Below, piece by piece: positions 132 through 64,000 of a stretch of DNA of 64,000 bases. The stretch spans positions 4,588,001 to 4,652,000 of the forward strand of contig JANJGN010000034.1 of assembly GCA_026770705.1 (NCBI GenBank), in the 5' to 3' direction. The first letter of the stretch is position 1. Each line of letters starts with the position of its first letter. Origin of the DNA: Isurus oxyrinchus. Taxonomy: Eukaryota. The translations under genes and the position numbers were made by a program. The notes beneath the pieces were generated by a model. The model was not told the origin of the DNA. It saw only the letters and a program-made list of their open reading frames with translations, and did no database searches.

Positions 132-167
132 AGCTCACTGAATGCAAAGAGTCTTCGAAAGATTTAA
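132..167 (+). CDS. Microexon type A, 36 nt
   Basis: ttccag|AGCTCACTGAATGC...GATTTAA|gtaaga; (E)LTECKESSKDL. Confidence 0.85.
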   Translation, partial: SSLNAKSLRKI

Positions 168-6100: not shown

Positions 6101-9100
6101 ACATGATGCTGGGTGTGAGAAGCTGCAGTCGAGGTAGCTTTGGGAGTCGATAGGCTTGTAATGGATATTGGTGGACCGTCTATCCCCAAAGATTAAGACA
6201 GAGAGGTCAAGGAAGGGAAGGGAGTGTCAGAGATGCAACACTGAAAATGATAGAGGTGTGGAGATTGGAGGCAAAATTAATATTTTTTTTCAAAGTCCTG
6301 ACGAGAGCATGAAGAAGCACAGAAGTAATCATCGATGTACCAGAGAAAGAGATGTGGAAGGGGGCCGGAGTTGGACTGGTACAAGGAATGTTGCACATAC
6401 ACCATAAAGATACAGGCATAGCTGGGGCCCATGTGCATAAAAGGTGTGGCTATGGGTACCCGCATGAGCACAAGCTATGCCTGTCTCTTTGTGGGGTATG
6501 TGGAACATTTCTTGTTCCAGTACTACTCCGGCCCCCTTCAAATATTTCTCTACAAACCTACCGACTCCCACAGCTACCTCGACTACAGCTCCTCACACCC
6601 CGCTTCCTGTAAGGACTCTAACCCATTCTCTCAGTTCCTTCACCTCCGTCGCATCTGTTCTGATGACGCTACCTTCAATAACAATTCCGCTGACATGTCC
6701 TCCTTCTTCCTTAACCGAGGTTTTCCACCCATGGTCGTTGACAGGGCCCTCAACCGTGTCCAGCCCATCTCCTGTGCATCCACCCTCACGCCTTCTCCTC
6801 CCTCCCAGAAACATGATAGGGTGCCCCTTGTCCTCACTTATCACCCCACCAGCCTCTGCAGTCAAGGAATCATCCTCTGCCATTTCCACCAAGTGCAGCA
6901 TGATGCCATCATGAAACACATCTTCCTCCATCACCCCATGTGTTGAAATTGATGATATTATCACAACCAATGTGCTAATTATGAATGGATGGTAGGGCAC
7001 TCAAGGTACAGCTCTAGTGGCGGTGGGTTGGAAAGACGAGCAAGGCATAAAATATTCATAAATAATGGAAATAGGTGGGAAAAGAAAAATCCATATAAAT
7101 TATGGGAGAAAACAAAAGAAGGGGGAAGAAACAGAAATGGGGTGGGGATGGAAGAGGGTGTTCGAGATCTAAAGTTGTTGAATTCAATGTTCAGTGTGGA
7201 AGGCCGTAAAGTGCCTAGTCTGAAGATGAGTTACTGATCCTCCAGTTTATGTTGGGTTTCAGTGGAACAATGCAACAGGCCAAGGGCAGACATGTGGGCA
7301 AGAGCGCAGGGTAGAGTGCTAAAATGACAAGTGACAGGGAGGTTTGGGTCATTCTTGCTGACAGACCGCAGGTGTTCTGCAAAGCGGTCGCCCAGTTTAC
7401 GTTTGGTCCCGCCAATGTAAAATAGACCTCATTGGGAGCAACGAATGTAGTAGACTTAGTTGGTGGAAATGAAATGAACATACTGCTTCACTTGAAAGGA
7501 ATGTTTGGGCCCTTGGACGGTGAGGAGTGAGGAACTGAAGGGGCAGGCGATGCATCTATTGCAAAACAAAAGCATCATAAACTGTTGTTGTGTCGCTTGG
7601 TTGCACTTATGGTGACAATCATCCTTCAAATACTAGGCATTCCGGTCTGGGAGTGTAGTTTTGTGTCTGCTGCCACGGTCAACATTTTTGATTTACCATA
7701 TACAGCAAGCTTAAATTGTTTGTTTTTAAACTCTGCAGTCCTAGCAACATTTGTGGAGCGAGTTACATAATTAAACTTTAGAGGCCAATATCTGTCTTCA
7801 GTGAAAATCAAGAGAGTTATTAGTGTGATGTGTAAACGTTGTTAAAACAACGGGGGAGGGACAGGTGGAACACAATAAAAGGTCAGGTAAAGGTTAGACG
7901 GCAAGAGTTAGTAAAAGACAATGAAGCCATGGAACTGAAGGTAGAGCGAATTTGAACGAGAGCAATAAATGAACAATGATCCATCCAATCTGGATGTATA
8001 GAGCAGAATGAATTCAACACTCTCAAATTAATTACATGCAACAAAGATACAATCTGAAACATGGGAAAACAGAAAATCAAAATTAGGCAGCTTACATGCT
8101 CTGACATTATTGAACTCGAAGTTGATCCCAGAACTCTGTAAAGTATTGAACAGGAGCTATTTCTTTAGCTTGCGTTCGCCATCTCTGGAAAATTGTATTT
8201 GCCAGAGGGGACATGGAAGCAGCACAATTGGATGATGAATTAGAGTGACAAACGACAGGAAGGGTGATGTTATTGCTAAGACATGAGCGAACAAAACTGG
8301 GACAGAACTGGTAGTGTGCCATGGTGTAAGACAAACATGGTCAAAAGAGCTGAACTCCAGGTGTAAACTGAGGTTGGCTGCCCTTGTATCAAGAAAATAT
8401 TTGAACGAGAATGGCTTCGTTGCATCTTGCACAACTGGAGCCAATGGAAATCAGGAAGAAAAAAAAATTCTGCTGGTTGGATTCATTCTTAGCAGAAAGG
8501 ATGTTGGTGGTGTTTATACGAGGTCAATCATCTCGTTCGAAGGGCATCACTGAATAAATTCCAGGAAATAGAATCCAAGTGAAATTGATCATCAACTGCT
8601 TTATCAATTACCTTCCTTCCATCATGAGGTCAGAATCAGGAATATTGGCAGAAGATTGCACAATATTCAGCACCATTTGTGACTGCTCAGATGCGGAAAC
8701 AGCCCATTTCCAAATGCAGCCAGATGTGGATAGTATACAGACTTGAGGTGCCAAGTGGCATGTGACGTTCTTGCAACTCAATTGCCAGGCCATGAACTTC
8801 TCCAACAAGAGAGAATGTAACAATCACTACCTGACATTGAATGGAATTAGCGTTGCCAAATCCCCCTATGACAGAATCATGGGTTTGACTATTGTGCAGA
8901 ATATAAACTAGAACAGCTATACAAATACTGTGGCTTCAATGGCTGGTTAAAGGCTACGAATCCTGCAGTGAGTAACTCAGCACATTACTACCCATACACT
9001 ATCCAGCACCTACTTTTCACAAGTAAGGAGTGTGGTCGAAAAAGATGCAATTGCCTGAATGAGTGCATCTCTAGCAAGATTCGGGAATCTTAACACCATC

Positions 9101-21100: not shown

Positions 21101-24100
21101 TTACAGCCCTAAAAATCACTGCTTCGCTACTTTTTATGTTTGTGTCATGGCACTCCTTAACAGCTGATCTTGAATGAAAACTTTGGTCTATATCCTTTTT
21201 ATCAGCTCTGTGTCTCTTGAGCTGCTGTAACAGATTGGCTGTCTTTTCGAATGCTGTTGAATAATTTTTTACGTGAAAGGCAAAGGTATATTCAGCATCA
21301 CATCAATGTTCCCATCGGGTTTTGATTCTCATTCAAGAGCTCCCGCATGCAAAAACAACTTTAAAGATTTTAGGTGAGAGAATAGATCTATTTTGAAGGA
21401 TTCCAAGTGATTACAGGAAACGGTCACTTGGGACAGAAAGGATGTGATATGGTTTCAGCTGTGCATTTTACCAAACAACGTATGTTTAGCTGACAAACTT
21501 TCAGAAATTTAATTAGCAAGCGGAGCATATAAAGGTCATCCCTTGCATTGCTACCCGTTTCGTGCTTCCACCGGTGAAGCATTCTCAGGTCCTCATGATT
21601 GATTGTAGTAGCGTTTTTATTGATTTTAACAATAAACAGCATTTTGGCCTGTACTCAGTGAGGTACAGAAAAGTACAGTCATTAGAACTATTTTATAGAG
21701 TGATACTCCTTGTTGTTGATCTTTGTTGTTGAAAATTAAATTAATATCTCTGCATAACAGAAGAGAAGCTGAAAGTAAAGCAATCAGCTGTTAATTTCGA
21801 AATTCAACTACTAGAAAGAGATGAAGCCCAGTGCCATTAACAATCACTAAGTAGCACTGAGACACGGAGACAAACACGCTCAACACACATACACACAAAA
21901 TTGGACAAGCACAACGTAAACACGATCGTAGTGAAGTTTAGCTAACAATGGATAAAATAATGGTGATCTATCGCGAAGATGTGGATGATGATTGATGATA
22001 AAATTGAAGTACTTCTGATACAAGGTAATATGATTTTGAACAGATGTTCCAAAAGAGAAAGACAGAAATCCCTTACATCTAGCTTTCTAATTCATATCTA
22101 GGAGACGTACATTGTATTTTTTTTGTGGAAAGCAAAAATGACGTTCATCTTACGAGGCAACGAAGATGATTTGCTTCACGTCAGATAACTGTTTCTGGTC
22201 GGCACAATTACCTTTCCATTTGTAAAAACGGAAAATGCTATAATCGGTATGTATTTTGATATTGGAATAGATTCAGTGGGCGTTGGGTGGGGGGTGGGGT
22301 TCGAAGCAAGCCCCAAGAACATTACTCTGAGTCTCCAGAAAACAACTCAATTGATTGGTGTCACTATGCCGCCCCCTTTGTCTGCCTAAAGTATTGCTGC
22401 TTCCTCATTCCATAACTTGTCAAGTGAAGAAAGCTGTTGATGATTCAGGTTAACACAAAACGAATATGCTGGGTTGGAAACTCTGCTTGGGTAATCGATC
22501 TCATTTGAGGAGTACAATACTGACCACTGATTGTAAATTGGTGCTTGAGCAACGCAATTGAATTATAGATTTATTTCATAAATGAGCAGTTTCATTCAAG
22601 TAGGTTTGAAGGGAATAAGGATTGTACCGTGGAGGTGCCTGAGAAGATGTGCTTCCCTACTGGGCTCCTGTTTGAATTCTACACTAAATGTCTTCTTGGC
22701 AGCTTCATATGAAGCTCTAACTTTTGATGGGTAATTACCCTACATGGCAACCAACGCTCAATGTTAAATGGAGACTTTGGATGATTCTTTCTCTCTGAGG
22801 AGATTATTCACCAAAAGACGATTAGATGAATTAAAACCAATTCCAACTCTTGAATAACTAACGTATTCACACAATGACACCCGCTACCCAAATACCACAT
22901 TCCCCCAAGACTACCTTGTACTAACTTCAGCCACACCTCCAAACAAAACTAACAACACCAACCATCTCTACCAAAGCCAGCAATTTGTCCTGCTTCCAAA
23001 TACGTCAAACGATAAGAGCAGGAAAAATGTGTGGCAGTGCGTGACAAATCATCGTACCCTATGATGCCTGATTAGCATTCATACAATTCTAGCAACGTTA
23101 CTGAAGAGGAATTTAAGAACATACGAAGAACAAGCAATTTAAATCCACCAATTTTCAAATGTATCTAGTGTAGACTGTGCATAGTTTCTGCTACCCAAAT
23201 TGGTGACGTCATGTCTTGCCATGCAAAAAAAGAAAATTCTCACCTACGACGTATTGCGCTGACTGGGAGACTCAAGGGTGCAACTGTGTGACTTTTTTTT
23301 TCATTTTTACCCAACTTATATTTCACTCATTAGGAAAAATGGTCCTTTACTCTGTATCAGGCCGATTATTTCCTTCACTCTGAACAATGTAATGCCCCCA
23401 CAAATTAACTTTCTGGACTGAAATAAATTTAAGCACCCTGTTGAATATTATAATCAACACGTAATTCTTAATGCCTCGCTATGGTTGTGGTGAATCTGCA
23501 CTGCATCGCATTAAAAATCATTGTCTACTTACTGAAGTGACATGCCATGACATGATTACTAGGCTGAGATTTCTCTCACTGTGGACCTGTTATAAGCAAT
23601 CACCGAAACTCAGTTCACTGTTTATAATTTAAATTATTTGCTGCATATTCTAAATGTTTTCCTTGCACTTTTACAGAAGAAAAATTGAAAATGAATGAGG
23701 ATGGTAACTAAATGAGAAAATTTTAGCTAACAGCGGCAATATGAATGAAGATGTCCTTTTTTGAAGGAATTGCGTGGAAGTGAGTGTTGTTGCAATCGAT
23801 GAGGGAAAGTATAGGAGTGATACACAATGTTTCCAGCCTTGATCCATATTATGGCGGGCAGCTATCTGACTGGGCTTCATTAGATTAATTGCACTGACCT
23901 CGGCTTTTGTTCTTTGTTCATTAGAACACTGAATGACTCGTTGATGTGGGCACATTCTGTCATTTTACTTTCTGGATGCCTGTCACGAAAATTTGTGCAG
24001 AGGATTGGAAGGGAAATTTCCAAAGACCTCGATTAGTAAGAGCACGGTGTTATGCGTCTTAGTTTTATTACATTAATTGGCATAGTATATAATGAACAAT

Positions 24101-36100: not shown

Positions 36101-39100
36101 ATTTGGAGATAATGAATTAAATTTTACTTAAGCAAACTCAGTAGAGGTAATAACTGCGCTGGGCAAGTTGGAAATTAAAGTGCTATGTCTGCTGATGTTT
36201 AATCCTAAATTTGTTAAATTAACTGAGCGCCCATTTTGATCAGAGGATAAAATAATAGCTTATTTTGCGCCTTATATTAGTCAATGAACTTGGCCATTAA
36301 TTTATAGTTGAGCAACTTAAACTAAATTTGAAATGAAAATATATTAGCAAAGCACTTACTCTGATTTATTCAATTGTATCATCACTTGTTGATATATTTC
36401 ACTCTCTTCAGCTATATTACATTCTACTTTTTCATTGCTGTGTTGCTGTGTCAGATTCTTCTGACGCACTATTTAGGATCTTCCACTGCCGGAATTTCCC
36501 GTTTTTTAAAAAATTGTATTTAATTCTCTTCTCTGCTGCTGCTTTTTCTTTGTTGCAATTATTGCGTTTGGCATTGTCAATTGTTCAATCGCTATTATGA
36601 AATTCTCTGTTATTTCCAATACAGCTGCTGCGGGTAGTTACTGCACAGTTTTTAACATCTCTTCTCCAATGTTCTTTGGTGCACTTCCACATCAATGAAT
36701 AATATGATTGAATATTACTACCTTCTGGACAGGAGCAAATCATAATTGAGGAGTCAGCGTAAAGCTATGGAAAATGTAATGCATGCCTGTTGATTATGAT
36801 AACCTGAAATTGCGTCCTTGCATTCCAGAGTTAGGTGACTGCCTGGAAGCTTTAAAAAAAATAGGTGCGTCGTCTTTTTCATACCTATGCAGTTCCCATT
36901 AAGAGAAATTCGACTCAAAGTAAAAAGAGGCATTTGAAACTCCCGGATAGAAACTTCAATGCTGATTGCTATGAAGCGCTAAATTCTTAACTGGGTTGAT
37001 TTGCAATATTCATGTTGATATGTGTGTCGGCGTGGAGGATTTGATTTAAATAATATATATTTGTTCAATCGAAGTGGCGGCCACTGACGATCGTTGCCAA
37101 TCCGTAACTGCTCGTGAGAATGTCTTATGGAGCTGCTTTCTTGAACCGCTGGAGCACATGTGATGAAGGTGCACCTTAGGGATGGATTCGAGGATTTCAA
37201 TCAAGCAACAATTTCCACGTGCAAACGTCTATCAAGCATTAACCACTATTTTCTTTCGTACACACTATTATCCTTTTCCAATGCCGTGAGTATAAGAACA
37301 GTGGGGTAAACAAGTAGTTTTCAACAGAAGCCAGAAAATGGGTGAATCCGGATAAGAAGTCCGTAATAGGCTCAGCCATATATTACGCTCCTTAATTTCA
37401 ATATAACTGAATGGAAATCTACGTGCATTCAGGCTACTTCCGATTTATTGTAAAGATGTGTTTCAGGGACCTCACCAGTTCATAGAATCATATCATAGAT
37501 ACAACCGAATTTCCCTGCACCTCCTGAATTAAAGCTAAAATCTATGTCCAATCGTACTTACACCACCAGCTAATTTGAACAGTTTTTGCTACTCTTCCTT
37601 ACGGAAACATACCATACACATTCACGTTCACATTTAATCTCCTCTCAGTCACATTTGCTTCAAGGAGAACAACCAAAATTTGTCCAAAGTAACTTTATAG
37701 ATCAAACATTCCGTGCCATTTCCGACCGTTTCCGTCGTGAAACATCTGTGCTACATCCACTCAAGCACTCTCATACCCTTCTTCAATGTTGGTAAGCGGA
37801 ACTGGAGGCAACATTATATTTGGCACCTAACTAGAACTGTCCTAAATTTCAACATAGAATTCATGCTTTTGTTTTCAATGCCTCCATTAGCAATTCCAAT
37901 TACGTTTGTGAACCACTCGTTTACCATATCCTATCACCTACAAAACTCAATCCACATGCACCCGTGTACTTCTATGTCTACACACGCTTTAGAATTGTTC
38001 TATGATACAGATGCATTTTTCTCCACCCATTGCACCCAAGTGCTTCAACTCACAGTACATTATATTGAATTTTGTCTGCTGCGTGCTTGCCCAATCCGCC
38101 CATCCATTCCATGCTATTGCGACATCCAAACCCTGTATAATGGAGTAAAGAAAAATCAGTGGTATTGGAAGTAACCCTTGGGGAATTCAATATCTAACAT
38201 CCAGCAGCCTGGGGGTATTGGGGGGATGGGGGTGGGGTGTGGTGCTGCAGGGGGTAATGCATATTTGCTCCTTTCTGCACAGGAGAAAATTTGCATCCAA
38301 CAATTCTTATATCGCTCTCCCATGATCCTAAATGCTGTTTGTCAACCTGGTTAGGATTACCTTTTGACAGTATAAGTTATTTTAATACATACGGGGAGTT
38401 TCATCTCATCGCTTTTATCAACATCTCTGCTGCTTCTTCACAACTGTGATTAAATTATTCAAACATGATCACAATATATAAGCTCGCCAAGGAGATCAAC
38501 GTTTGATATACCGAGTGGTTCGCACGTCTGGGATTAATGCCCTCTGTTATTTTGCATTTTCTCTCAGGTCTAATATAAGCAAAAAAACTAGTTTATAAAT
38601 AATATGTAAAACAACACAGCACAGTAATGGCGCCACTTGCAGTTCTGTCAGGAGGCAGCCTAGCAGCCAATTCTGGCATCTTAAATTCTAGACAATCTAA
38701 AATGTATTGTTTTATTTTTTTTCCCTAACAGAAGAAAAGCTAAAATTAAAAAGTACAGGTAGATGCAATAATGTTCATTTTGTAGAAGGAACAGCCGTTC
38801 ATTATGTGACCATTGTCCCTGTGTAACATGTGTTTGACAGGGTCATAACGTCATAGAGATATGTTTCACGGAAAGAGGCCCATCAGCCCATCCTGCCCGC
38901 GCCGGAGATCAAGTCACAGTCTACATTCATCCCATTTTCCAGCACTTGGCTCATACCCGTGAATGCTATGGAATGTCAAGTGTTCCTCTAAGATTTTAAT
39001 TCATGTGGTGGGTGTCCGCCTCTACCACCTTTTCAGGCAGTGATTTCCAGGTGTGCCCTTTCCTCTGCGTGGAAAAAATAATAATTTTCACCCCTCTAAG

Positions 39101-42100
39101 TCCCTTACCTTAAATCTATGCTCCCTTTCATCCTCTAACGGGAAATGGTTCTTCCTATCCTTCAAATCTACACCTCTCATAATTTTGTGCATCTCAATCA
39201 CATCCCCCCGAGCCTCCAATTCTCTAAGAAAAACAATCCCATCTGTCAAACTCTCTCCATAGCTGAAAAGCTCCAGCCTAGGTAGCATCCACGTGAATCT
39301 ACTCTGCACCTTCCCAAATGAAATTACGTCTTTCCTACAGTATGGCGACCAGAACTGCAGACAGTACTCCACATGAGGCCTAATCAAAATTTTATACAGC
39401 CCGATCATAACTATATTGCTCTTGCATTCAGTGTCTCGAAAACTATTTTCAGGATAGTATAGACATTAGTAACAAAATTATCTACGGGTCATGTGTCAGT
39501 CTAAGATCTATACACATACACACCAACGCCCCTCTGATCCCTTCTACTGCCTATGGTCCTGTAATAGACCCTGTACTCCCTTGACTTGTCAATCCTCCCA
39601 AAATACCTCATCTCAACTTTTCAGGATTTCATTTTATTTGACAATCTTCTGTCCATCTGACCAACATGTCTATGTCGTCCTTTCATATAAGGATTTCCAC
39701 CACGCTATTTACCACACCAGCAAATTCAGTGTCATCAGCAAACAGTCTAAACCTAAGTCCTACATTCATGTCTAGACCATTACGTACACGGCAAACAACA
39801 AGATATACAGCAGCGAGCCATGTGGTACGCCGGAGGACACAAGCTTCTGGTTTCAAAAGCAACGTTGTACCATGACACTCTGCCTCCTGTCCTTAATCCA
39901 ATTTTTGACCCAGTTTGCCAAAATGCCCTGGATCCCTTGGGCTCTTACCTTCTTGAACAGTCACCACTGCGAGGACATTTCAAAGCCTTACTTACGTCCA
40001 TTTAGTCTAACTCAACCACACTATCCGCATGTACCACATAGTCACCTCCTCAAAAAATTCGATAAAATTTGTTAAACCTGATGGCTACCAGTCAAAACTA
40101 TGCTGAGTAAAATTATTAATCATTGCATCTCCCAGTGGAGATTAATTAGGTCCTTCAGTTTTTATTTCCAAAAGATTCCCTACCACTGATGTTATATTGA
40201 CTGTACTTTAGTTTCTTGCTTTATCCATATGCTCATTTTGAATAATGGTGCCATGTTCGCTTTCCTCCAGTCGTCTGTCATCTCCCGTGTGGCCAGACGG
40301 TATTTGCAATTTGACATCAGGTTCCCTGTAACCTTCCGTTTGCTTACCACAGAAGCTGGGAATTATCACAGTGGGCAAAGGAATTATTGAATGTTAAGTC
40401 CCCTTAAAACTGCAACACTTGCTTCCTCTCTGTGCTAATTTGCTCATGTATATCATAGTCTCCCTTCCTGATTTCTCTACATCTTTCATCCTTCCCTACA
40501 GTGAATACCGAAGAAAATTGATTACTTAAAACAAAATCCACGTCTTGCAACTCTTCACACAGATTGTCAATGTGGCCCCGAATGGACTCTACTCTTTCTA
40601 ATGTTATACTCTTGCCCCTAACACACTTATAAAACCCTCTTTGAACTCGTTTATTTTACCCACCATTGTTTTACATGCCCACTCTTCGATCTAATTATTT
40701 AAAGTAACCTCCTACACTTTTTTTCACTCCTCTGGGGTTTCCACATTTTTCAGCCCTCAGTATGTAAAATAAGCGTTACTTTTTTTTCCCTAATTCAATC
40801 CTACACATTAATGGACTTACGGGGTTCTCTGGATATCCTGGCTCCATCTTGTGTCTTTACAGGAACATGTTGATCATGCACACTCACTATTTTATTTTTG
40901 AATGACTCCCAATTCTCTGAATAGATTTTCTACAAGTAGCTGGTCCCGGACCACTTTGGGCAGAACTTGATTTGCCATATTAAAATCGCTTTCACACCAA
41001 TTTAGAAACTTTGAATCCAGTCCATATTTGTCCTTTTACGTTAATACCATAAATATTACTTAGTTATGGCCGCAATCACTGAAAAGCTCCCCACAGACAT
41101 ATATACCACTTGCCCAGCTTCGTTCAATAAAGTTCAGTCCAACACTACTCCAGTTCCCTCTCTTATAGGACTTTCTACATGCTGACGTAAAAAGTGCATG
41201 GAGATCATTTTTAAGAATGCCTTCATGTCAAAGCCTTCCATACTTAGTCTATCCCAATCAAAATTTGGGAATTTAAACTCTCCTACTGTTATTGCCATAT
41301 TATTTTTACGCTTCTCTGCGTAAACATCTGCCCCTCCATACGTCCCTACCTCTTTGCAGGCCTATAGTACATTATAAGCAGTCTGATTGTCCTCTTCTTG
41401 TTAATGAGATCAACGTATATGACCTTGATTGAGTAACAATCGTAGGCATCAGCCATCCGTGTTGCTGCCATTGGCTCGTAGAACAATATTGCGACAACAG
41501 CAAATCTTTCACGCAACTAACACCCCGTGCAATCGCCCTTCCCACCACCCCCCACCCCACCCCCTCCCAACACCATCCACACCACCACCGCCTGAAGATT
41601 GTATACCTGGAATATTGATCTGCCAATCCTGTCCCTTCCTCAACCACATAGGTGTGAGATCAACGGTATTGTATCCCAATGTTTTAATCAACACCTGCGG
41701 CTCATATGCTTTACTTGCAAGACCGCGTAAATTATGAGAAAGGTCTCCAGCTTTTCCTTGCTCCCCATATACCATTATTTGACCATCTCTGCTCTGCCTT
41801 CTCGACCGACTTGATTTTTCCCCTCTATTTGCTGTGCATCACCCTCCACTATACATCCGCTCCTTACCCATTCCTCTGTCAAATTAGTTTAAAGCCATAC
41901 CAGCATTAAGACCAACACTCCTCCCTCCGCTCAACACCCAAGGCTGCTGGTGTCACTCCGGTTCAGGTTCAACCCGTCGGATTTGCACTTCTCCAGAGAA
42001 ATCACCTAAAGAACCAAAAAATTAAAGACCACTCTCCGGCATGAACGCTTCCTTCACGCATTCAGCAGTTCTAACCAACTATTGGGATACTCACTAGCAA

Positions 42101-45100
42101 GTGGCACAAAATCAATCAGAAGAGTATAACACTTGAGGACCTGCTTTCTAATCTGTAGCAAACTTCATCGGTTCTTGATGCAGGGTCTCATCCCTCTCCG
42201 TACCTATATCGTTAGTACCAATGTGAATGATGAACTCTGGCAGTTTGTCCTCCACCTACAGAATGCCCTGCATTCGGCCAGTGAAAACCTTCTCCCTAGA
42301 GCCTGGAGGGCAGCACAGATCCCTGGAGCCACGTATGCAGCCGCAGAAACACCTGTCTGTACCCCCTCACTAATGTGTCTCCTCCTACCATTGCTTTTCT
42401 CCCTTTCTCCTCGCCCTCGTGAAACTGGGCTTTGGCTGCTCTCCTCAGACGAACTGTCATTCACACCGTTTTCCAACACCCAAAAAAAAAAATGTTCTTG
42501 AGTGGGCAGCAGTTTGAGACTTCCCTGACTACCGACCTGTGTCCTTGCCGGGGTCACCAATTCCTTCCCTTACTGCATTCCCTTAAACTGCGGTGTGACC
42601 ATTTCTAAAAAATGCTCTATCCACATAGCTGTCTGGGCCGCAATTGCACTGCTGTGCCTCCAGCCAACACTCAAGCTCGGAAACCCGGCGCTCATGACTG
42701 TCCAAACTATCAGGAGTGTCCAAGATTCATATCTTTAGAACGGATTATGTTCATTACATTTTTACTCATATTTTACAATGCAATGAACTTAAAGTGCCGT
42801 TAGTGTTCATCTGGACTAATTCAATGAAGGGGCTCCATAAGATTGTTCTGAGGAAAATAGTTCTGCTTAAGAGCGCATCTAAAACAGAAAGCCACAGAAG
42901 TTTTACATTATAGTCACCAGTAGATCCAAAAGCAGTTATTCTTCGAACCTTTCCCAGGTTCTGGTAACAAGATGACATTCACCATCATGATGTTTTGTCA
43001 AGATTAATGGCCATGCTGTATTTAGGGTAAAGTTGCATTAAGAAATGCGAGCTGAGCAATATACAATGCTGGAAAATTGATGTGTGGTTAAACACGATAG
43101 ACAGTAAGACTCCAGTCATTAACTTATGCAAATGCCTCGGCGATTTCCATGGAAAAAGCCATTTATAATGCGTGAGGAGCCAAAGTCACGCATCACAAGT
43201 TCAAAAACATTTTCAAACCCTTATCTGTACCATGCTGAACTCGTTGTCAATAGCCATACCATTAACCAGGCAGCTGGAAAAAAAGTGCAATATCTGAAAA
43301 AGCAGTATTTGGTGATTCTGCGCTAGTAAATAATGTACTAACTGTGCATACTCGCCCATAATTTAAATGGATAAGTATGACATGTGACGAAATGCTCCCT
43401 ACTTGCACGGAAGGATGCAGCTCCAACAACCCTCAAGGAACTCGAAATTATATCAAGGCAAAAATTCCCGCTTTATTTGTACCCATTCCAGAACTGAAAA
43501 ATCCTCAAATCCACCCCCTGACCACGGATGTCAACAGTCTGCAGCAAAAAAAGAGCCCTGCTGCAGCACAGCAATTCTGCTGCGACAAGACCTTTAAGCT
43601 CGCAGTGTTTATCATCCAGAAGAGTGAGGCCATGAAGCACAATGGATCATCACCAACTTGCAAGTTCCCTTTCAAGAAAATCAATATCCTCGCAACTAAA
43701 TTTACCCCATTTTATCATCATCGTCACGCCCAACTCCGACATCATCACAGGTGACAGTGTTGGGACAGCATGAACATTGCATGAATTGCAGCAATTCAAC
43801 AACAAGGTTTTCTTCACCCTTTCAGTTGCAATCATTGTGAGGAATAAATGTTGATCTTATTACCAAGGACCAGACTCCATGATCAAACAGAAATGGAATT
43901 GGAGGAGAATGTTGCAGAACACCAGATAGCATGGAACAGTTGCTTCCACCTGGCCCACTCTATGAAGTAAAACCGAAGTCTTCTTTTAAATTGACATTGT
44001 GAAATTCAATGGCAAAGAACATTTAGCCTCAGTCGATTTCCCTGTGTTTTATCTTAACCTGCTGTGGTGCATAATGGACGATTATCTGTATATTCGCCAT
44101 ATTACGCTTTTTCTCTAAAACTGTCATGCTACAAATATTAGCATTTTTTAAGGATGAGGCGTTTCTTTAACATTAAGGGCAAAGCATTTATGCACATAAG
44201 TTTGTAGCAGAAATAAAATCATTGGCACTGAAGCCTATCCATAACTGCTCATCCAGGTGTGGAATTAATGCAAATATTGATTTTTTTATGTATTTCGGCT
44301 ACATTACATAAAATTAATTTGTGGTATGACATAACGTCAGAAGGTCAGAAGAGCTTCAGGGGAGACATCTTGAAACACATTGTGGAGAAAGTGGATATCA
44401 GTCTCCTAAGGGGTAGTTCAAACGACTAGTGTAGGAAAATGTAAAGATGATTAAATATATGTTCATTAAACATCATTAGTAGTTACTATGCATGTAGTTA
44501 CTTTGGAGTAGAAGTCTTTTGCAGAGATCAATTGCATAAGCACATATTTTGTTTTCACTAAATCCTATGCATTAGCACTGGGTAGAGGAGGATTTTTTTT
44601 TCTGAAAAATGACTGTTTCAAAATTAATTTAATGAAATTGCAGATCTTCTTAAATGCGAAGAATCTTCAAAAGAAACAGGTGAGCACTTTAATTCTTGTA
44701 CAGTTCTGATGCTGTTTGTTGAGAGAAAAAGGCAATTTCGATAAAGGCCGTTATACACATAAAACAATCAAAATTCCCATGAACTTCCATGCGTTTTTTC
44801 TTCGGCCCCTGTCCCAGTTGGCTGCACAGGATCAATTCCTGTCTAAATTGCTCAAGTTTGCCGAAGCTTTTATTCAATAGCCTCCTGGAACACATTTGCA
44901 TATGGTTGAAGGCAAACATCCAGTTCATAGAATCATATTATAGATACAACCGAATTTCCCTGCACCTCCTGAATTAAAGCTAAATTCTATGTCCAATCGT
45001 ACTTACTCCACCAGCTAATTTGAACAGTTTTTGCTACTCTTCCTTACGGAAACATACCATACACATTCACGTTCACATTTAATCTCCTCTCAGTCACATT

Positions 45101-48100
45101 TGCTTCAAGGAGAACAACCAAAATTTGTCCAAAGTAACTGTATAGATCTAACATTCCATGCCATTTCCGACCGTTTCCGTCGTGATACATCTGTGCTACA
45201 TCCGCTCAAGCACTCTCATACCCTTCTTCAATGTTGGTAAGCGGAACTGGAGGCAAAATTATATTTGGCACCTAACTAGAACTGTCCTAAATTTCAACAT
45301 AGAATTCATGCTTTTGTTTTCAATGCCTCCATTAGCAATTCCAATTACGTTTGTGAACCACTCGTTTACCATATCCTATCACCTACAAAACTCAATCCAC
45401 ATGCACCCGTGTACTTCTATGTCTACACACGCTTTAGAATTGTTCTATGATACAGATGCATTTTTCTCCACCCATTGCACCCAAGTGCTTCAACTCATAG
45501 TACATTATATTGAATTTTGTCTGCTGCGTGCTTGCCCAATCCGCCCATCCATTCCATGCTATTGCGACATCCAAACCCTGTATAATGGAGTAAAGAAAAA
45601 TCAGTGGTATTGGAAGTAACCCTTGGGGAATTCAATATCTAACATCCAGCAGCCTGGGGGTATTGGGGGGATGGGGGTGGGGTGTGGTGCTGCAGGGGGT
45701 AATGCATATTTGCTCCTTTCTGCACAGGAGAAAATTTGCATCCAACAATTCTTATATCGCTCTCCCATGATCCTAAATGCTGTTTGTCAACCTGGTTAGG
45801 GTTACCTTTTGACAGTATAATTTATTTTAATACATACGGGGAGTTTCATCTCATCGCTTTTATCAACATCTCTGCTGCTTCTTCACAACTGTGATTAAAT
45901 TATTCAAACATGATCACAATATATAAGCTCGCCAAGGAGATCAACGTTTGATATACCGAGTGATTCGCACGTCTGGGATTAATGCCCTCTGTTATTTTGC
46001 ATTTTCTCTCAGGTCTAATATAAGCAAAAAAACTAGTTTATAAATAATATGTAAAACAACACAGCACAGTAATGGCGCCATTTGCAGTTCTGTCAGGAGG
46101 CAGCCTAGCAGCCAATTCTGGCATCTTAAATTCTAGACAATCTAAAATGTATTGTTTTATTTTTTCCCTAACAGAAGAAAAGCTAAAATTAAAAAGTACA
46201 GGTAGATGCAATAATGTTCATTTTGTAGAAGGAACAGCCGTTCATTATGTGACCATTGTCCCTTTGTAACATGTGGTTGACAGGGTCATAACGTCATAGA
46301 GATATGTTTCACGGAAAGAGGCCCATCAGCCCATCCTGCCCGCGCCGGAGATCAAGTCACAGTCTACATTCATCCCATTTTCCAGCACTTGGCTCATACC
46401 CGTGAATGCTATGGAATGTCAAGTGTTCCTCTAAGAACTTAATTCATGTGGTGGGTGTCCGCCTCTACCACCTTTTCAGGCAGTGATTTCCAGGTGTGCC
46501 CTTTCCTCTGCGTGGAAAAAATAATAATTTTCACCCCTCTAAGTCCCTTACCCTAAATCTATGCCCCCTTTCATCCTCTAACGGGAAATGGTTCTTCCTA
46601 TCCTTCAAATCTACACCTCTCATAATTTTGTGCATCTCAATCACGTCCCCCCGAGCCTCCAATTCTCTAAGAAAAACAATCCCATCTGTCAAACTCTCTC
46701 CATAGCTGAAAAGCTCCAGCCTAGGTAGCATCCACGTGAATCTACTCTGCACCTTCCCAAATGAAATTACGTCTTTCCTACAGTATGGCGACCAGAACTG
46801 CAGACAGTACTCCACATGAGGCCTAATCAAAATTTTATACAGCCCGATCATAACCATATTGCTCTTGCATTCAGTGTCTCGAAAACTATTTTCAGGATAG
46901 TATAGACATTAGTAACAAAATTATCTACGGGTCATGTGTCAGTCTAAGATCTATACACATACACACCAACGCCCCTCTGATCCCTTCTACTGCCTATGGT
47001 GCTGTAATAGACCCTGTACTCCCTTGACTTGTCAATCCTCCCAAAATACCTCATCTCAACTTTTCAGGATTTCATTTTATTTGACACTCTTCTGTCCATC
47101 TGACCAACATGTCTATGTCGTCCTTTCATATAAGGATTTCCACCACGCTATTTACCACACCAGCAAATTCAGTGTCATCAGCAAACAGTCTAAACCTAAG
47201 TCCTACATTCATGTCTAGACCATTACGTACACGACAAACAACAAGATATACAGCAGCGAGCCATGTGGTACGCCGGAGGACACAAGCTTCTAGTTTCAAA
47301 AGCAACGTTGTACCATGACACTCTGCCTCCTGTCCTTAATCCAATTTTTGACCCAGTTTGCCAAAATGCCCTGGATCCCTTGGGCTCTTACCTTCTTGAA
47401 CAGTCACCACTGCGACGACATTTCAAAGCCTTACTTACGTCCATTTCGTCTAACTCAACCACACTATCCGCATGTACCACATAGTCACCTCCTCAAAAAA
47501 TTCGATAAAATTTGTTAAACCTGATGGCTACCAGTCAAAGCTATGCTGAGTAAAATTATTAATCATTGCATCTCCCAGTGGAGATTAATTAGGTCCTTCA
47601 GTTTTTATTTCCAAAAGATTCTCTACCACTGATGTTATATTGACTGTCCTTTAGTTTCTTGCTTTATCCATATGCTCATTTTGAATAATGGTGCCATGTT
47701 CGCTTTCCTCCAGTCGTCTGTCATCTCCCGTGTGGCCAGACGGTATTTGCAATTTGACATCAAGTTCCCTGTAACCTTCCGTTTGCTTACCACAGAAGCT
47801 GGGAATTATCACAGTGGGCAAAGGAATTATTGAATGTTAAGTCCCCTTAAAACTGCAACACTTGCTTCCTCTCTGTGCTAACTTGCTCATGTATATCATA
47901 GCCTCCCTTCCTGATTTCTCTACATCTTTCATCCTTCCCTACAGTGAATACCGAAGAAAATTGATTACTTAAAACAAAATCCACGTCTTGCAACTCTTCA
48001 CACAGATTGTCAATGTGGCCCCGAATGGACTCTACGCTTTCTAATGTTATACTCTTGCCCCTAACACACTTATAAAACCCTCTTTGAATTCGTTTATTTT

Positions 48101-51100
48101 ACCCACCATTGTTTTACATGCCCACTCTTCGATCTAATTATTTAAAGTAACCTCCTACACTTTTTTTTCACTCCTCTGGGGTTTCCAAATTTTTCAGCCC
48201 TCAGTATCCAAAATAAGCGTTACTTTCTTTCCCTAATTCAATCCTACACATTAATGGACTTACGGGGTTCTCTGGATATCCTGGCTCCATCTTGTGTCTT
48301 TACAGGAACATGTTGATCATGCACACTCACTATTTTATTTTTGAATGACTCCCAATTCTCTGAATAGATTTTCTACAAGTAGCTGGTCCCGGACCACTTT
48401 GGGCAGAACTTGATTTACCATATTAAAATCGCTTTCACACCAATTTAGAAACTTTGAATCCAGTCCATATTTGTCCTTTTACGTTAATACCGTAAATATT
48501 ACTTAGTTATGGCCGCAATCACTGAAAAGCTCCCCACAGACATTTATACCACTTGCCCAGCTTCGTTCAATAAAGTTCAGTCCAACACTACTCCAGTTCC
48601 CTCTCTTATAGGACTTTCTACATGCTGACTTAAAAAGTGCATGGAGATCATTTTTAAGAATGCCTTCATGTCAAAGCCTTCCATACTTAGTCTATCCCAA
48701 TCAAAATTTGGGAATTTAAACTCTCCTACTGTTATTGCCATATTATTTTTACGCTTCTCTGCGTAAACATCTGCCCCTCCATACGTCCCTACCTCTTTGC
48801 AGCCCTATAGTACATTATAAGCAGTCTGATTGTCCTCTTCTTGTTAATGAGATCAATGTATATGACCTTGATTGAGTAACAATCGTAGGCATCAGCCATC
48901 CGTATTGCTGCCATTGGCTCGTAGAACAATATTGCGACAACAGCAAATCTTTCACGCAACTAACACCCCGTGCAATCGCCCTTCCCCCCCCCCCCCCCCC
49001 CCCCCCGCCCCCCAACACCATCCACACCACCACCGCCTGAAGATTGTATACCTGGAATATTGATCTGCCAATCCTGTCCCTTCCTCAACCACATAGGTGT
49101 GAGATCAACGGTATTGTATCCCAATGTTTTAATCAACACCTGCGGCTCATATGCTTTACTTGCAAGACCGCGTAAATTATGAGAAAGGTCTCCAGCTTTT
49201 CCTTGCTCCCCATATACCATTATTTGACCATCTCTGCTCTGCCTTCTCGACCGACTTGATTTTTCCCCTCTATTTGCCGTGCATCACCCTCCACTATACA
49301 TCCGCTCCTTACCCATTCCTCTGTCAAATTAGTTTAAAGCCATACCAGCATTAAGACCAACACTCCTCCCTCCGCTTAACACCCAAGGCTGCTGGTGTCG
49401 CTCCGGTTCAGGTTCAACCCGTCGGATTTGCACTTCTCCAGAGAAATCACCTAAAGAACCAAAAAATTAAAGACCACTCTCCGGCATGAACGCTTCCTTC
49501 ACGCATTCAGCAGTTCTAACCAACTATTGGGATACTCACTAGCAAGTGGCACAAAATCAATCAGAAGAGTATAACACTTGAGGACCTGCTTTCTAATCTG
49601 TAGCAAACTTCATCGGTTCTTGATGCAGGGTCTCATCCCTCTCCGTACCTATATCGTTAGTACCAATGTGAATGATGAACTCTGGCAGTTTGTCCTCCAC
49701 CTACAGAATGCCCTGCATTCGGCCAGTGAAAACCTTCTCCCTAGAGCCTGGAGGGCAGCACAGATCCCTGGAGCCACGTATGCAGCCGCAGAAACACCTG
49801 TCTGTACCCCCTCACTAATGTGTCTCCTCCTACCATTGCTTTTCTCCCTTTCTCCTCGCCCTCGTGAAACTGGGCTTTGGCTGCTCTCCTCAGACGAACT
49901 GTCATTCACACCGTTTTCCAACACCCAAAAAAAAAAATGTTCTTGAGTGGGCAGCAGTTTGAGACTTCCCTGACTACCGACCTGTGTCCTTGCCGGGGTC
50001 ACCAATTCCTTCCCTTACTGCATTCCCTTAAACTGCGGTGTGACCATTTCTAAAAAATGCTCTATCCACATAGCTGTCTGGGCCGCAATTGCACTGCTGT
50101 GCCTCCAGCCAACACTCAAGCTCGGAAACCCTGCGCTCATGACTGTCCAAACTATCAGGAGTGTCCAAGATTCATATCTTTAGAACGGATTATGTTCATT
50201 ACATTTTTACTCATATTTTACAATGCAATGAACTTAAAGTGCCGTTAGTGTTCATCTGGACTAATTCAATGAAGGGGCTCCATAAGATTGTTCTGAGGAA
50301 AATAGTTCTGCTTAAGAGCGCATCTAAAACAGAAAGCCACAGAAGTTTTACATTATAGTCACCAGTAGATCCAAAAGCAGTTATTCTTCGAACCTTTCCC
50401 AGGTTCTGGTAACAAGATGACATTCACCATCATGATGTTTTGTCAAGATTAATGGCCATGCTGTATTTAGGGTAAAGTTGCATTAAGAAATGCGAGCTGA
50501 GCAATATACAATGCTGGAAAATTGATGTGTGGTTAAACACGATAGACAGTAAGACTCCAGTCATTAACTTATGCAAATGCCTCGGCGATTTCCATGGAAA
50601 AAGCCATTTATAATGCGTGAGGAGCCAAAGTCACGCATCACAAGTTCAAAAACATTTTCAAACCCTTATCTGTACCATGCTGAACTCGTTGTCAATAGCC
50701 ATACCATTAACCAGGCAGCTGGAAAAAAAGTGCAATATCTGAAAAAGCAGTATTTGGTGATTCTGCGCTAGTAAATAATGTACTAACTGTGCATACTCGC
50801 CCATAATTTAAATGGATAAGTATGACATGTGACGAAATGCTCCCTACTTGCACGGAAGGATGCAGCTCCAACAACCCTCAAGGAACTCGAAATTATATCA
50901 AGGCAAAAATTCCCGCTTTATTTGTACCCATTCCAGAACTGAAAAATCCTCAAATCCACCCCCTGACCACGGATGTCAACAGTCTGCAGCAAAAAAAGAG
51001 CCCTGCTGCAGCACAGCAATTCTGCTGCGACAAGACCTTTAAGCTCGCAGTGTTTATCATCCAGAAGAGTGAGGCCATGAAGCACAATGGATCATCACCA

Positions 51101-54100
51101 ACTTGCAAGTTCCCTTTCAAGAAAATCAATATCCTCGCAACTAAATTTACCCCATTTTATCATCATCGTCACGCCCAACTCCGACATCATCACAGGTGAC
51201 AGTGTTGGGACAGCATGAACATTGCATGAATTGCAGCAATTCAACAACAAGGTTTTCTTCACCCTTTCAGTTGCAATCATTGTGAGGAATAAATGTTGAT
51301 CTTATTACCAAGGACCAGACTCCATGATCAAACAGAAATGGAATTGGAGGAGAATGTTGCAGAACACCAGATAGCATGGAACAGTTGCTTCCACCTGGCC
51401 CACTCTATGAAGTAAAACCGAAGTCTTCTTTTAAATTGACATTGTGAAATTCAATGGCAAAGAACATTTAGCCTCAGTCGATTTCCCTGTGTTTTATCTT
51501 AACCTGCTGTGGTGCATAATGGACGATTATCTGTATATTCGCCATATTACGCTTTTTCTCTAAAACTGTCATGCTACAAATATTAGCATTTTTTAAGGAT
51601 GAGGCGTTTCTTTAACATTAAGGGCAAAGCATTTATGCACATAAGTTTGTAGCAGAAATAAAATCATTGGCACTGAAGCCTATCCATAACTGCTCATCCA
51701 GGTGTGGAATTAATGCAAATATTGATTTTTTTATGTATTTCGGCTACATTACATAAAATTAATTTGTGGTATGACATAACGTCAGAAGGTCAGAAGAGCT
51801 TCAGGGGAGACATCTTGAAACACATTGTGGAGAAAGTGGATATCAGTCTCCTAAGGGGTAGTTCAAACGACTAGTGTAGGAAAATGTAAAGATGATTAAA
51901 TATATGTTCATTAAACATCATTAGTAGTTACTATGCATGTAGTTACTTTGGAGTAGAAGTCTTTTGCAGAGATCAATTGCATAAGCACATATTTTGTTTT
52001 CACTAAATCCTATGCATTAGCACTGGGTAGAGGAGGATTTTTTTTTCTGAAAAATGACTGTTTCAAAATTAATTTAATGAAATTGCAGATCTTCTTAAAT
52101 GCGAAGAATCTTCAAAAGAAACAGGTGAGCACTTTAATTCTTGTACAGTTCTGATGCTGTTTGTTGAGAGAAAAAGGCAATTTCGATAAAGGCCGTTATA
52201 CACATAAAACAATCAAAATTCCCATGAACTTCCATGCGTTTTTTCTTCGGCCCCTGTCCCAGTTGGCTGCACAGGATCAATTCCTGTCTAAATTGCTCAA
52301 GTTTGCCGAAGCTTTTATTCAATAGCCTCCTGGAACACATTTGCATATGGTTGAAGGCAAACATCCAGTTCTGCAGAAAACTGGCAGCAGCACGGCAAAT
52401 AATATTTGGAATGCCTGTTTTGCTTTTGATCTCTTCCATTATATATTTAAGCTCGGTAGTTTGTGAAAGCCGCATGAATGTCACGTTTCTCTTATGGCTA
52501 TTATCAACAAACGTAAGATATGTTAGCGACCGTAACTGGCCCACTTCCGAATAAAGAGATGTTAAATTGCGAATGGGTGCCTGCATTTAGGTTGCTGAAA
52601 TATTGGCTCGCCGCTTTCGACGGCAGCAGCTTCTTTCCGACGAAATTACTGGTGAATCATGTTCAACAGCTTTTAAAATGATCAAATGATATAATTATGC
52701 CATGAAGCTCCAGTTTTATTTCACGCACCTCCAAAAGTAGCAAAAACAAAAAAAAGAAAATAAATAATGATAAATAATTCATTCTGTTGGCCTTGCTTTT
52801 TTGTTGCATCTAAAAGGAATTGGAATGTTTGCCTTTGAACAAATGCGAAATATGTTGAAACATAATTCGGCTCTGGACCTTATTTTTTTGTCTTGACTCC
52901 TTTGAATCAATATCAATGTAATTGTTTCGCGGCAACTTTGTGTGATAAAAAAACATCAGTGCAATTCTCTGGACATATTAAATGGGAATGATGGCGTCAC
53001 ATTGTCTTGTTTTTTTATTGCGTAGATCAAACCTCCGGCTGAAAAAGCGTATCATTCACTGCGGAAGTGCTGATGAGCTGTCCACAAGGGAATTGTTCGG
53101 GACATTTAAACTTTTGATGAGCAAACCCGCTGCCCCCCATGATCCTCCCCGAAAGCCCCTGACTCTGACTTTCAATTGGATATGTCGAACAGTTCTGTGG
53201 TACTTGCCTGAAAGTTTGCCCAGTGAATGGTAGGCAAGTTAAAACATAGATTAACACCTGTGTGACTAAACTACTCACTGCAGCACGTTCTCCGTATATC
53301 ACGCAGAACACACGACTACACCCACAATCACGTGACCAGCTTCCCAACCTGACGCGATCGGACAATCCCAATAACATAACCCGACTAGACCTCGGACAAT
53401 ACCTGAGAACCTCATGAAAACATGAGGAAACACCCTACCGGGCCGCACCCAAATACCGCCCGACCATCCAACTAGGCCCCAAACACTCGAGTACTTCCCC
53501 GACAGAATTGACTGGCACAGCCAGCTAAATACTACAAGACGGGCGCTGAACACCCACTGAATACCAGACTCCACATCAGATCCTAATCACCACACTCTGA
53601 AAACCCCGCCTGCACTCCGAACTGCGCCAACTTAAACCCGACTAACGGAATAACTGACACATGTCTCGACTACCTTCTGATCACTCATTGCACCCTAAGC
53701 GTCATATTACATCCCCAACCAGAAACGACTAAAGGCCGACCTCCCGTCACGCCGGCTAACCTCTAATCGATTGAACTAAGAAATGACTCACCTACCCCAA
53801 GTGGAATCGTCAACCCCGCCGAACCGATTAGCTGCAGACGCGAAGAGACAACACTTCGATGGCCAGGCTGCCCCAAACACACGGCTGGCTCCCCAATATG
53901 AGTCGATAATCCGAACGCCCAACAGACACAGCAACTTTTCCACCACCCCGGATGTGACCAGAATGCCCCCTTGAACAGGATACTACACTTCAGAGGTGAT
54001 CTGACTACCGCCGTTCGAAAACTGAAGTGTGCTGGCACGACTATCTACTGAACCACTTATGTATTTCACCCACCTATCACTTACCCATTTACCCACACAA

Positions 54101-62195: not shown

Positions 62196-63009
62196 GTGAG
62201 CAAAATATTAAATATTAAGTATGCAGCGAAAATATATCGTAAAATAGATTTAATCATTAATTTAACCATGTGGCATGTAATCACTCCAGTGTTGACGGCA
62301 CATTTTGCCCAGTTTGGCATTCCTATACATTACAAAGCCTTGGATGGCGAGTGGTAAATAAGCGACAGGGAGTTTCTTTAAGTATGCAGTCAGTTGCAAT
62401 GAAGTTCAAGAAAGGAGGGTGTCAATGCTTTGTGGTTGCTAGTGAGTCCAGCAGAGCCTGAAAATTTCTGTCCTTGAGTTATTTGGTTGAAGAGATCAGA
62501 TATGATTGAGTTCAGCTATTGCGGATATGGAACATGGGTGCTTTAAATTAAAATGTAAAATCGACAATCCGGGACAATGGCATCACCATTGGAGACGAGA
62601 TAGAGTGGCAATAAATTTGCATCGGAATTTATAGTAGCGATTCAGTTTGCTTTAGATCAGGCATCATAACTGTTCGGCCTGGGTGGTTTGTAGAATTTGT
62701 GAGTCTTGGTGCAGACCTCATAACGCAAAAAAAACTATAAAACATTTGAGCCAACGTCCTAGATTATAGTCAGATAGGGGTGAGTGATATTATTGGTGAG
62801 AATAAGTGCATGAACATTTGGAGGAAGAGATCATGCTGTTGTTAGTTCTAGTGGATCTGTGAAAATTTGGATTGTCCTGCCTTTCTGTTATGCACATAGG
62901 TTGGAATGAAATACGTTATTGAGAGAGATTCGATAGGAGTCCGTTCAAGAAGGGTCGAACACTGAGACGATTCAGCAAATCAAAGATAAGGCGCAACATG
63001 CCAAGATTA

Positions 63010-64000
63010 ATCAGAAATAAACAGTGGACAACAAAGTAAGTTAAAAATTGCTTTAGACCAAATAAAGTGGCTTAATAGGCTGACAGAACAAGCAATACAA
63101 TCGAATGATTGGGAGATTAGAATCAACAAAAGTGTGATCAAGAAAATGATCAGAATTGGGAAAGGAAGGGGCAGGAAATCCAACGAGAATCAGCAAGGCG
63201 AATTTTTGAGAAGTTTCTTTATGAATGTGAAAAAAAGGGAAAATATTAGGAAAGGAAACTATCAGCACATTTCAGGCGGGGAGAAGATAACCTGTAAAGG
63301 GGAACCGGACAATTGCGGAGAAGCTAACATTTTCTTAGTGTCTCTCTTCAAGGAGGATTACCCAGAAAATTTCCCAGTAATACTAGGGGACCAATAGACT
63401 TATGAAAAAGACAACAGGAAGGAATCAGTATCTTTCAAGAGGCGATACTCGCAAAAAAAATAAATAAAACAATTGGATTGCTGTTTGATAAAAATAAATA
63501 TTGTACCAAATGAGTAGCAATTCCGATTATTGAAAATGGAAGTTATTGAAATAGAGAATACATTCGTGGCTACCTTTCAAATTTCTATATATTTTGGAAA
63601 GATTGCTGCAGACTCTAAATCACCTAATGTAGCCCAACTACTCATGAAGGGAGGGAAAGAGTACCACTGAGTATCGACCAGTTATTTTGACATCAATAGT
63701 AGGGAAATTGCTCGAACAAGTCTACTTATGAAAGGGGAATCATGCCTGATAATGCTGTAGGAGTGATTTGAATATGTTGCTTGCAGCATAGAGATAGGAG
63801 AAATAATTGTCATGGTGTATTTGAATGTTCAGGATAAGTACCTTAAGATAGAAAAAAAATGATTGGTTTTGTTGTTAATATGAATTGCAAATTGGTTAAA
63901 GAATAGAAAAGAAAGCTAGCATTAAGCAGTTAATTGTCAAGTTGGCTGGTTGTTACTAGAGCGGCATCACAATGAACAATGCACGGGACACAGCTGTTCA
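63010..64000 (+). mobile_element. Decayed CR1 LINE ORF2 fragment running off the window
   Basis: ~63625-63720 reads NVAQLLMKGGK...YRPVILTSIVGKLLE, matching the CR1 pre-RT motif NVTPLFKKG...NYRPVSLTSVVGKLLE. Confidence 0.7.

Follow-up and report, generated by a model that had tools for sequence, protein, structure and literature searches.

Enterophilins of the guinea pig are cytosolic mammalian proteins in which an extended heptad zipper, tens of heptads long, is joined to a C-terminal B30.2 domain. In chicken, the coiled coil of BG molecules is encoded by a variable number (13-36) of heptad exons of 21 nt, sometimes 24 nt, in a protein that also contains IgV and transmembrane (TM) segments and is described without B30.2 (PMC4046983, PMC8813856); the 'zipper protein' is considered here together with BG. 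Butyrophilins, as outlined in the same literature, combine Ig domains, a TM segment, and a few heptads with a terminal B30.2 domain (PMC4046983, PMC8813856, PMC12841164), and the definition of TRIM proteins given in one of these sources requires RING plus B-box (PMC8813856).

Here we describe a gene of the shark Isurus oxyrinchus (genome size 4.98 Gb) that belongs to neither the butyrophilin, the BG, nor the TRIM family. The window studied is a stretch of 64,000 nt, positions 4,588,001-4,652,000 of contig JANJGN010000034.1 (C34); together with its flanks it formed the 941 kb of contiguous sequence that was analysed (C34:3,928,001-4,869,000), and off-window positions are also given as +/- values (C34 position minus 4,588,000). 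The gene spans about 818 kb, from its probably non-coding exon 1 to a SPRY exon, so the exon array in the window is a slice of about 8% and extends beyond it in both directions. As in chicken BG, a long coiled coil is built from tiny heptad exons, including 35 intact ones of 21 nt; unlike BG, the shark gene has B30.2, no IgV or TM was found in it, and it consists mostly of 36/27-nt pairs with 6-15 times the exon number of BG. Heptad repeats followed by a terminal B30.2, with BTN3A1 B30.2 as the best structure match, are shared with butyrophilins, in contrast to which no IgV-IgC-TM was found, the heptads number hundreds instead of a few, and the SPRY domain falls outside the TRIM/BTN group. PRY-SPRY TRIMs (TRIM21/39/58-like) have the same succession of coiled coil and PRY-SPRY, whereas no RING or B-box was found in the locus or in six relatives and the coiled coil is more than 10 times longer and built of microexons. 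Enterophilins are probably the closest in architecture. On this analogy, the gene is best read as resembling a butyrophilin/BG tail minus its membrane part, or a TRIM coiled coil plus PRY-SPRY minus RING-B-box, scaled up. The first-pass annotation, made on the window, had drawn the analogy to BG and butyrophilin tails and had suggested inspecting the flanks for Ig/TM/B30.2 or TM/C-type lectin exons: a B30.2 exon does close the array, but Ig, TM, and lectin exons were not found there, and the membrane-bound layout is not supported. Its alternative, a stalk of the CD23 type, is not supported either, as no N-terminal TM of the kind seen in CD23/CD209-type II lectin receptors was found and the array closes with SPRY rather than a C-type lectin. 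The design of heptad exons plus B30.2 is already known; the chondrichthyan family itself is uncharacterised, and a literature search, with subscription journals and supplements outside its coverage, gave no description of this gene family.

The exon anatomy of the window is read directly. With generic splice scores, its plus strand holds 18 AG..GT candidates at 27 nt and 15 at 36 nt, with 0-3 at each of the other lengths from 15 to 60 nt, and its minus strand holds none at 27 nt and one at 36 nt (range 0-5); this length histogram is an unbiased test of the window microexons. The trained scan lists 41 copies, namely 36 clean exons, three decayed copies, and two doubtful, low-scoring candidates at 29,238 and 34,933, the latter of which makes a junction stop. 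The clean exons lie between 132 and 62,195 on the plus strand. Eighteen are 36 nt long, starting at window positions 132, 1162, 4560, 5719, 11264, 13529, 16858, 18050, 21338, 24582, 25961, 30145, 31117, 34186, 36829, 44644, 52089, and 62160; the other 18 are 27 nt long, starting at 502, 3495, 4969, 10214, 12453, 15788, 17281, 20058, 23677, 25223, 29134, 30541, 33096, 34624, 38732, 46175, 55732, and 61392. The decayed copies, also on the plus strand, are one of 27 nt at 21761-21787 (donor CT) and two of 36 nt at 27142-27177 (in-frame stop, donor GA) and 35415-35450 (donor GA). Introns enter from upstream (1-131, +) and leave downstream (62196-64000, +). From window -100 kb to +36 kb the exons form a higher-order repeat of four types, two of 27 nt and two of 36 nt, which add up to six heptads; intron sizes within it recur at about 0.4, 0.7, 2, and 1.05 kb; an additional 36-nt class beside the four is often decayed. 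Window positions 6,422-7,000 contain intronic frames on both strands that look like a decayed retroelement, a label that is a reading of their translation, and frames of much the same appearance, located about +96 to +100 kb, have matching stretches at -274, -508, and -570 kb.

The first-pass annotation had described at least 37 microexons alternating between 36 and 27 nt. The exons are real and they alternate, but 36 are clean in the window and the alternation breaks once, at 55,732 and 61,392, which are both 27 nt long; a convincing 36-nt exon between these two was sought and none was found. As an inventory of the gene, about 37 microexons of two sizes falls far short of the actual number, which exceeds 200, and leaves out a third size of 21 nt. 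Its account of the coding layout, with less than 2% coding, AG/GT ends, phase 1 throughout, and stop-free joining, was accurate: the clean exons total 1,134 nt (1.83% of the span), all 36 have AG/GT ends and are in phase 1, and there are 0 stops once they are joined. The repeat that it had outlined, with hydrophobic residues at positions 2, 5, 9, 12, and 16 and usually Lys at 19, is likewise present, the LIVMFC fractions at these positions in the 17 36+27 pairs of the window being 0.94, 0.88, 0.59, 0.59, and 0.94, with Lys at position 19 in 13 of 17 pairs. Position 5, a core heptad position, is Cys in 11 of 17. The proposed heptad coiled coil agrees with the top hydrophobicity period, which is 3.50 with a power of 7.0 (mean 0.3 and maximum 3.0 in 500 exon-order shuffles). 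Only 36+27 pairs, of 21 aa, and single 21-nt exons, of 7 aa, preserve the heptad register, and a lone unit of 9 or 12 residues shifts it; since all exons are in phase 1 and a multiple of 3 long, any one of them can be gained or lost in frame.

Over the whole gene, the trained scan at a score of at least 15 yields 275 copies, of which 230 are splice-intact without an internal stop and 45 (about 16%) are decayed. Dropping seven T-ending copies, six of which cause junction stops, leaves 223 intact exons (100 of 27 nt, 88 of 36 nt, and 35 of 21 nt) that encode 2,201 aa; a stricter cut, at a score of at least 20, keeps 202 intact microexons and 2,003 aa. The true exon set is uncertain because 45 of 275 copies are decayed and six naive junctions create stops, and diverged exons were likely missed. 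The best minus-strand scores inside the gene are 15.1, 12.9, and 11.7, an estimate that false positives may somewhat exceed because the profiles were trained on the plus-strand set. All parts of the array are on the plus strand. The first eight 36/27-nt copies occupy C34:4,010,266-4,045,206 (the first at -577,734), and a block of 21-nt exons follows at C34:4,070,498-4,194,787 (56 copies, 36 splice-intact), an unbiased histogram from -517.5 kb to -393 kb giving 20 candidates at 21 nt versus 0-4 at other lengths. The 36/27-nt array continues upstream of the window at C34:4,197,997-4,587,133 (130 copies, 110 intact) and downstream of it up to C34:4,814,277 (40 copies, 38 intact).

The array ends in a B30.2/PRY-SPRY exon. 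The last 27-nt exon is at +226,251; the next exon, entered through a phase-1 acceptor, begins at +228,507, and its 521 nt of coding sequence (C34:4,816,507-4,817,027, +) consist of SPRY plus stop. This exon is in frame with the array, lies 166 kb beyond the last window exon, and is the one SPRY exon within the 941 kb. It is open for 172 codons and 58-61% identical to its nearest paralogs and ortholog. The exon matches PF00622 (E 3.4e-14), and a profile built from nine family members matches B30.2 structures, best of all BTN3A1 (E 5e-30), and TRIM21 (E 4e-26). The AlphaFold model of the domain is poor (pLDDT 50.6), its fold matches echoing the sequence result, and an Atlas search returned generic SPRY clusters. 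A search of sequencing runs gave five by species label (share 0.00) and no RNA run containing the sequence; in the 10-kb surroundings of the SPRY exon, contigs of four of the five cover repeats only and leave the exon itself uncovered. Neither result has a bearing on expression either way.

At the opposite end, a 111-nt exon with a strong phase-1 donor and the first in-frame ATG lies upstream of the first microexon (C34:4,005,537-4,005,647, -582,463, +). Its sole other match in the genome is at C34:4,859,425, 42 kb past the stop of the gene; the 111-nt exon there likewise has an in-frame ATG, and it is accompanied by a conserved first microexon (87%). C34:4,859,425 is thus the start of the next paralog, which would span about 1.55 Mb (4.85-6.40 Mb). 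Further upstream, by 6.9 and 10.9 kb, both genes have in common a block of about 250 nt with a splice donor, whose score of 101.5 compares with a mean of 24 and a maximum of 45 for 200 random pairs; in the gene, this donor is at C34:3,998,628 (+). Since no ATG occurs in the 230 nt preceding the donor, exon 1 is read as non-coding. The intron between exon 1 and the 111-nt exon has patchy collinearity with the paralog; candidates for a phase-1 leader exon in it were listed and compared across both paralogs, and none is conserved. A candidate ATG exon at C34:~4,004,150 was rejected, as it ends in phase 0 and is out of frame. In the first nine or so codons of the 111-nt exon, upstream of the ATG of the gene, differences from the paralog are mostly at third positions; to judge from this codon-like conservation, either the ancestral start may be an ATG at the third codon of the paralog, or a short leader exon may have been missed.

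Front domains of the known systems were sought as well. With tblastn, seven fish butyrophilin N-termini gave no match at E <= 1 against C34:3,928,001-4,869,000, and 17 N-termini (seven butyrophilin, eight TRIM, and two type II) gave nothing at E < 0.01 over the 941 kb; a genome search with PF22705 listed no match near the locus. No C-type lectin exon was found at the locus, and no candidate TM exon common to the paralogs was found, a very short missed exon being possible. Over segments of 19 residues, hydropathy in the joined model peaks at 1.13, versus 2.48 for a type II protein, and its N-glycosylation sequons are neutral (six observed versus 7.9 expected). A RING-like match at C34:4,699,313-4,699,417 (window +111,313; E 0.011) was discarded as a RING of this gene: it was obtained with one of the eight TRIM queries, is intronic, and contains a stop. 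It is probably either a chance match or a decayed TRIM fragment.

It seems that selection acts on the register of the coiled coil. In the phase-1 frame, 3 of 233 splice-intact copies contain stops, versus 162 and 97 in the other two frames, a test that is partly circular because the training set left out stop-bearing copies. The alternation of intact exons from -162 kb to +64 kb is 0.918, versus 0.792 under a null that presumes independent loss (0 of 5,000 random removals were as high); loss of whole neighbouring units would also keep alternation. Deleting the decayed copies lifts the value from 0.858 to 0.918, and over -392 kb to +228 kb it is 0.84 versus 0.766 (p = 0.0002). Decay falls mainly in splice sites and, given that a lone unit shifts the register and a pair does not, it appears to be filtered for register. 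Within a 26.7-kb duplicate, 17 of 210 sites at codon positions 1+2 have diverged (8.1%) versus 15.3% in introns (p = 0.0013), position 3 differs at 15 of 105 (14.3%; p = 0.89), and splice dinucleotides differ at 1 of 40. The dN/dS values are weak, 0.104/0.139 (~0.75) in 10 duplicate exon pairs, two of them with decayed copies, and 0.377/0.321 (~1.2) in three older pairs, the three of 35 that passed the flank filter, and thus the amino-acid constraint is loose. Moreover, the window contains a tandem duplication of 7.45 kb (37,475-44,926 and 44,920-52,371, +; 99.2% identical), each copy of which has one 27-nt and one 36-nt exon, exactly three heptads, with the exons identical between copies; it is either a recent event or an assembly artefact. 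Exon duplication and loss are therefore both observed, as expected for the length-tunable rod that had been proposed from the window.

The gene is one of a cluster. C34 carries four further SPRY exons of this type, at 6.40 and 7.50 Mb (+, 58-59%) and at 3.47 and 2.71 Mb (-, 40-44%); the next matches in the genome, most of them on C21, are much weaker (E >= 4e-35 versus <= 7e-45). Upstream of each of the four there is a 27-nt exon candidate, and 27/36-nt exons occur on the expected strand in samples of 10 kb, one taken at 5.6 Mb (+) and the other at 3.1 Mb (-). Past -613 kb the microexons are on the minus strand, which marks a head-to-head paralog; its first exons were sought and not found, and a sample of 20 kb likewise gave no 5' end for the 7.50-Mb paralog. 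The SPRY exons at C34:6,395,830 and 7,496,453 (L092, L093), 1.1 Mb apart, are near-identical and have an identical last 27-nt exon; judged by this similarity, we regard the two as a recent large duplication. Between about 83 and 118 Mb, C21 has a very large cluster in which B30.2 matches exceed 100 and butyrophilin-type C2 matches number about 20; it is probably the TRIM/BTN region of this genome.

Named members of the family come exclusively from cartilaginous fishes (shark, ray, skate, and chimaera), so that the earlier description 'lineage-specific' applies at that level and at nothing narrower. In databases the family consists of automatic, mostly fragmentary models. Two shark entries, from Scyliorhinus torazame (61%) and Chiloscyllium punctatum (51%), are SPRY-only and measure 190 and 178 aa, in keeping with the supposition that the gene was hidden and poorly annotated; most database relatives are short (218-460 aa) and auto-named after TRIMs. 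A single-sequence search for longer relatives returned 14 TRIM-like proteins with at most 35% identity, and profile searches brought up the family, including automatic models of greater length from Leucoraja, Narcine, Scyliorhinus canicula, and Callorhinchus. In a SPRY tree of 48 rows, rooted at the midpoint only and with family rows chosen by the same profile, a 100/100 branch separates the 16 family rows from the remainder, made up of 15 TRIM, 12 BTN, and five other rows. Within this clade, on a long branch, is the 1,697-aa protein XP_042192744.1 (P0180) of the elephant shark Callorhinchus milii, a family member that RefSeq automatically names 'nuclear-pore anchor-like'. It parses into the same 12- and 9-aa units, with z of 7.9 and 4.0 versus heptad-block shuffles, compared with 2.1-3.8 for three other relatives and -2.5 to 1.3 for five unrelated control coiled coils. 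The layout is thus probably older than the divergence between chimaeras and the sharks and rays, and the 12+9-aa split repeat, which the first-pass annotation did not recognise from any gene, does have a precedent in RefSeq, if under an automatic name only. P0180 has a hydrophobic N-terminus, and its residues 1-385, with a basic cluster, have no clear counterpart in the gene; this part may come from a fused gene model. P0180 and P0269 begin hydrophobic (11-residue means 2.85 and 2.93), and four other relatives do not; scanned for RING, B-box, and Ig, six relatives gave none, and PRY/SPRY only. RefSeq isoforms are told apart by internal segments, which measure 9 and 6 aa in Narcine and 9 aa in S. 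canicula and Callorhinchus. Because RefSeq isoform sets are usually built on transcript alignments, these differences suggest that the microexons are spliced and skipped in relatives. In bowfin (P0009, P0110) and gar (P0113), auto-named B30.2 proteins have a repeat coiled-coil stalk with N-x-S/T and a C-terminal B30.2, with a TM-like N-terminal stretch in P0009 and P0110; all three are apparently type II membrane proteins with extracellular B30.2, and by tree and unit parse they are unrelated to the rod family described here.

We lean, by a modest degree, towards a functional giant gene whose product is a cytosolic coiled-coil rod with a C-terminal SPRY head. If, as we infer, all intact exons enter one mRNA that is translated from the ATG of the 111-nt exon, the product would have a short polar head of about 27 aa, a rod of about 2,000-2,200 residues (roughly 300-330 nm at the textbook coiled-coil rise of 0.15 nm per residue), and a C-terminal B30.2/SPRY. 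The predicted protein is without signal peptide, TM, or Ig and hence would be cytosolic. The rod may oligomerise chains and set two or more SPRY heads at a fixed distance from the N-terminal end, and it might be a long spacer or tether that lets the heads bind ligand with avidity, like the TRIM coiled coil or the butyrophilin/BG tail. Its length would shift when units are duplicated in tandem, when splice sites decay, and probably when exons are skipped, with selection on register. By analogy, the putative role is most likely innate-immune or cytoskeletal scaffolding.

It is conceivable, and in our judgment unlikely, that a short unrecognised coding exon adds a signal peptide or N-terminal anchor, so that the product would be a secreted, Cys-crosslinked extracellular fibre or a golgin-like membrane tether. 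The codon-like conservation at the start of the 111-nt exon, the hydrophobic starts of P0180 and P0269, and the core Cys in 11 of 17 window repeats would fit such a protein; however, no conserved phase-1 leader exon was found between exon 1 and the 111-nt exon in either paralog, the four other relatives start without a hydrophobic stretch, and the codon conservation is explicable if the third-codon ATG of the paralog is the ancestral start. That the locus is a functional cassette pool, never spliced whole, from which skipping or internal promoters produce many shorter rod isoforms is quite unlikely in our view, although each exon is frame-neutral, relatives are mostly 218-460 aa with isoforms that differ by single units, and an 818-kb pre-mRNA of 200 exons would be costly. 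The array-wide, register-preserving alternation suggests that neighbours are joined in order, the 1,697-aa elephant-shark model holds long unit runs, and the short models may reflect 3'-biased evidence only. As for the decay of some 16% of copies and a dN/dS near 1 in some pairs, these would also be expected if the gene were a recently dead or dying copy with signals inherited from its ancestor, which we consider very unlikely: the SPRY exon has stayed open over its 172 codons at 58-61% identity to the closest paralogs and ortholog, the 99.2%-identical duplication adds exactly one register-neutral pair, and decay is centred on splice sites and improves the alternation.

With the functional rod gene as the preferred reading, the locus exposes a multi-megabase gene cluster that annotation shrinks to lone SPRY exons or mis-named TRIM fragments. 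More than 200 coding exons would rank the gene near the top of vertebrate exon counts, for which titin and nebulin serve as comparison, and the locus is a natural test case for how cells splice 200 microexons over 0.8 Mb. Selection on coiled-coil register via splice-site decay offers a testable rule for change in rod length, and the locus bears on the origin of the heptad-exon tails of BG and butyrophilins. More tentatively, and at somewhat less than even chances, there may be an undescribed family across the cartilaginous fishes, of megabase-scale genes with hundreds of 21/27/36-nt exons, encoding SPRY-tipped rods that are several hundred nm long and owe their length to exon pairs being gained, lost, and skipped with the register preserved. 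If this is true, such family-wide rods would add a third B30.2 architecture to those of TRIM and butyrophilin, with combinatorial diversity of rod length, encoded by some of the most exon-rich genes of vertebrates.
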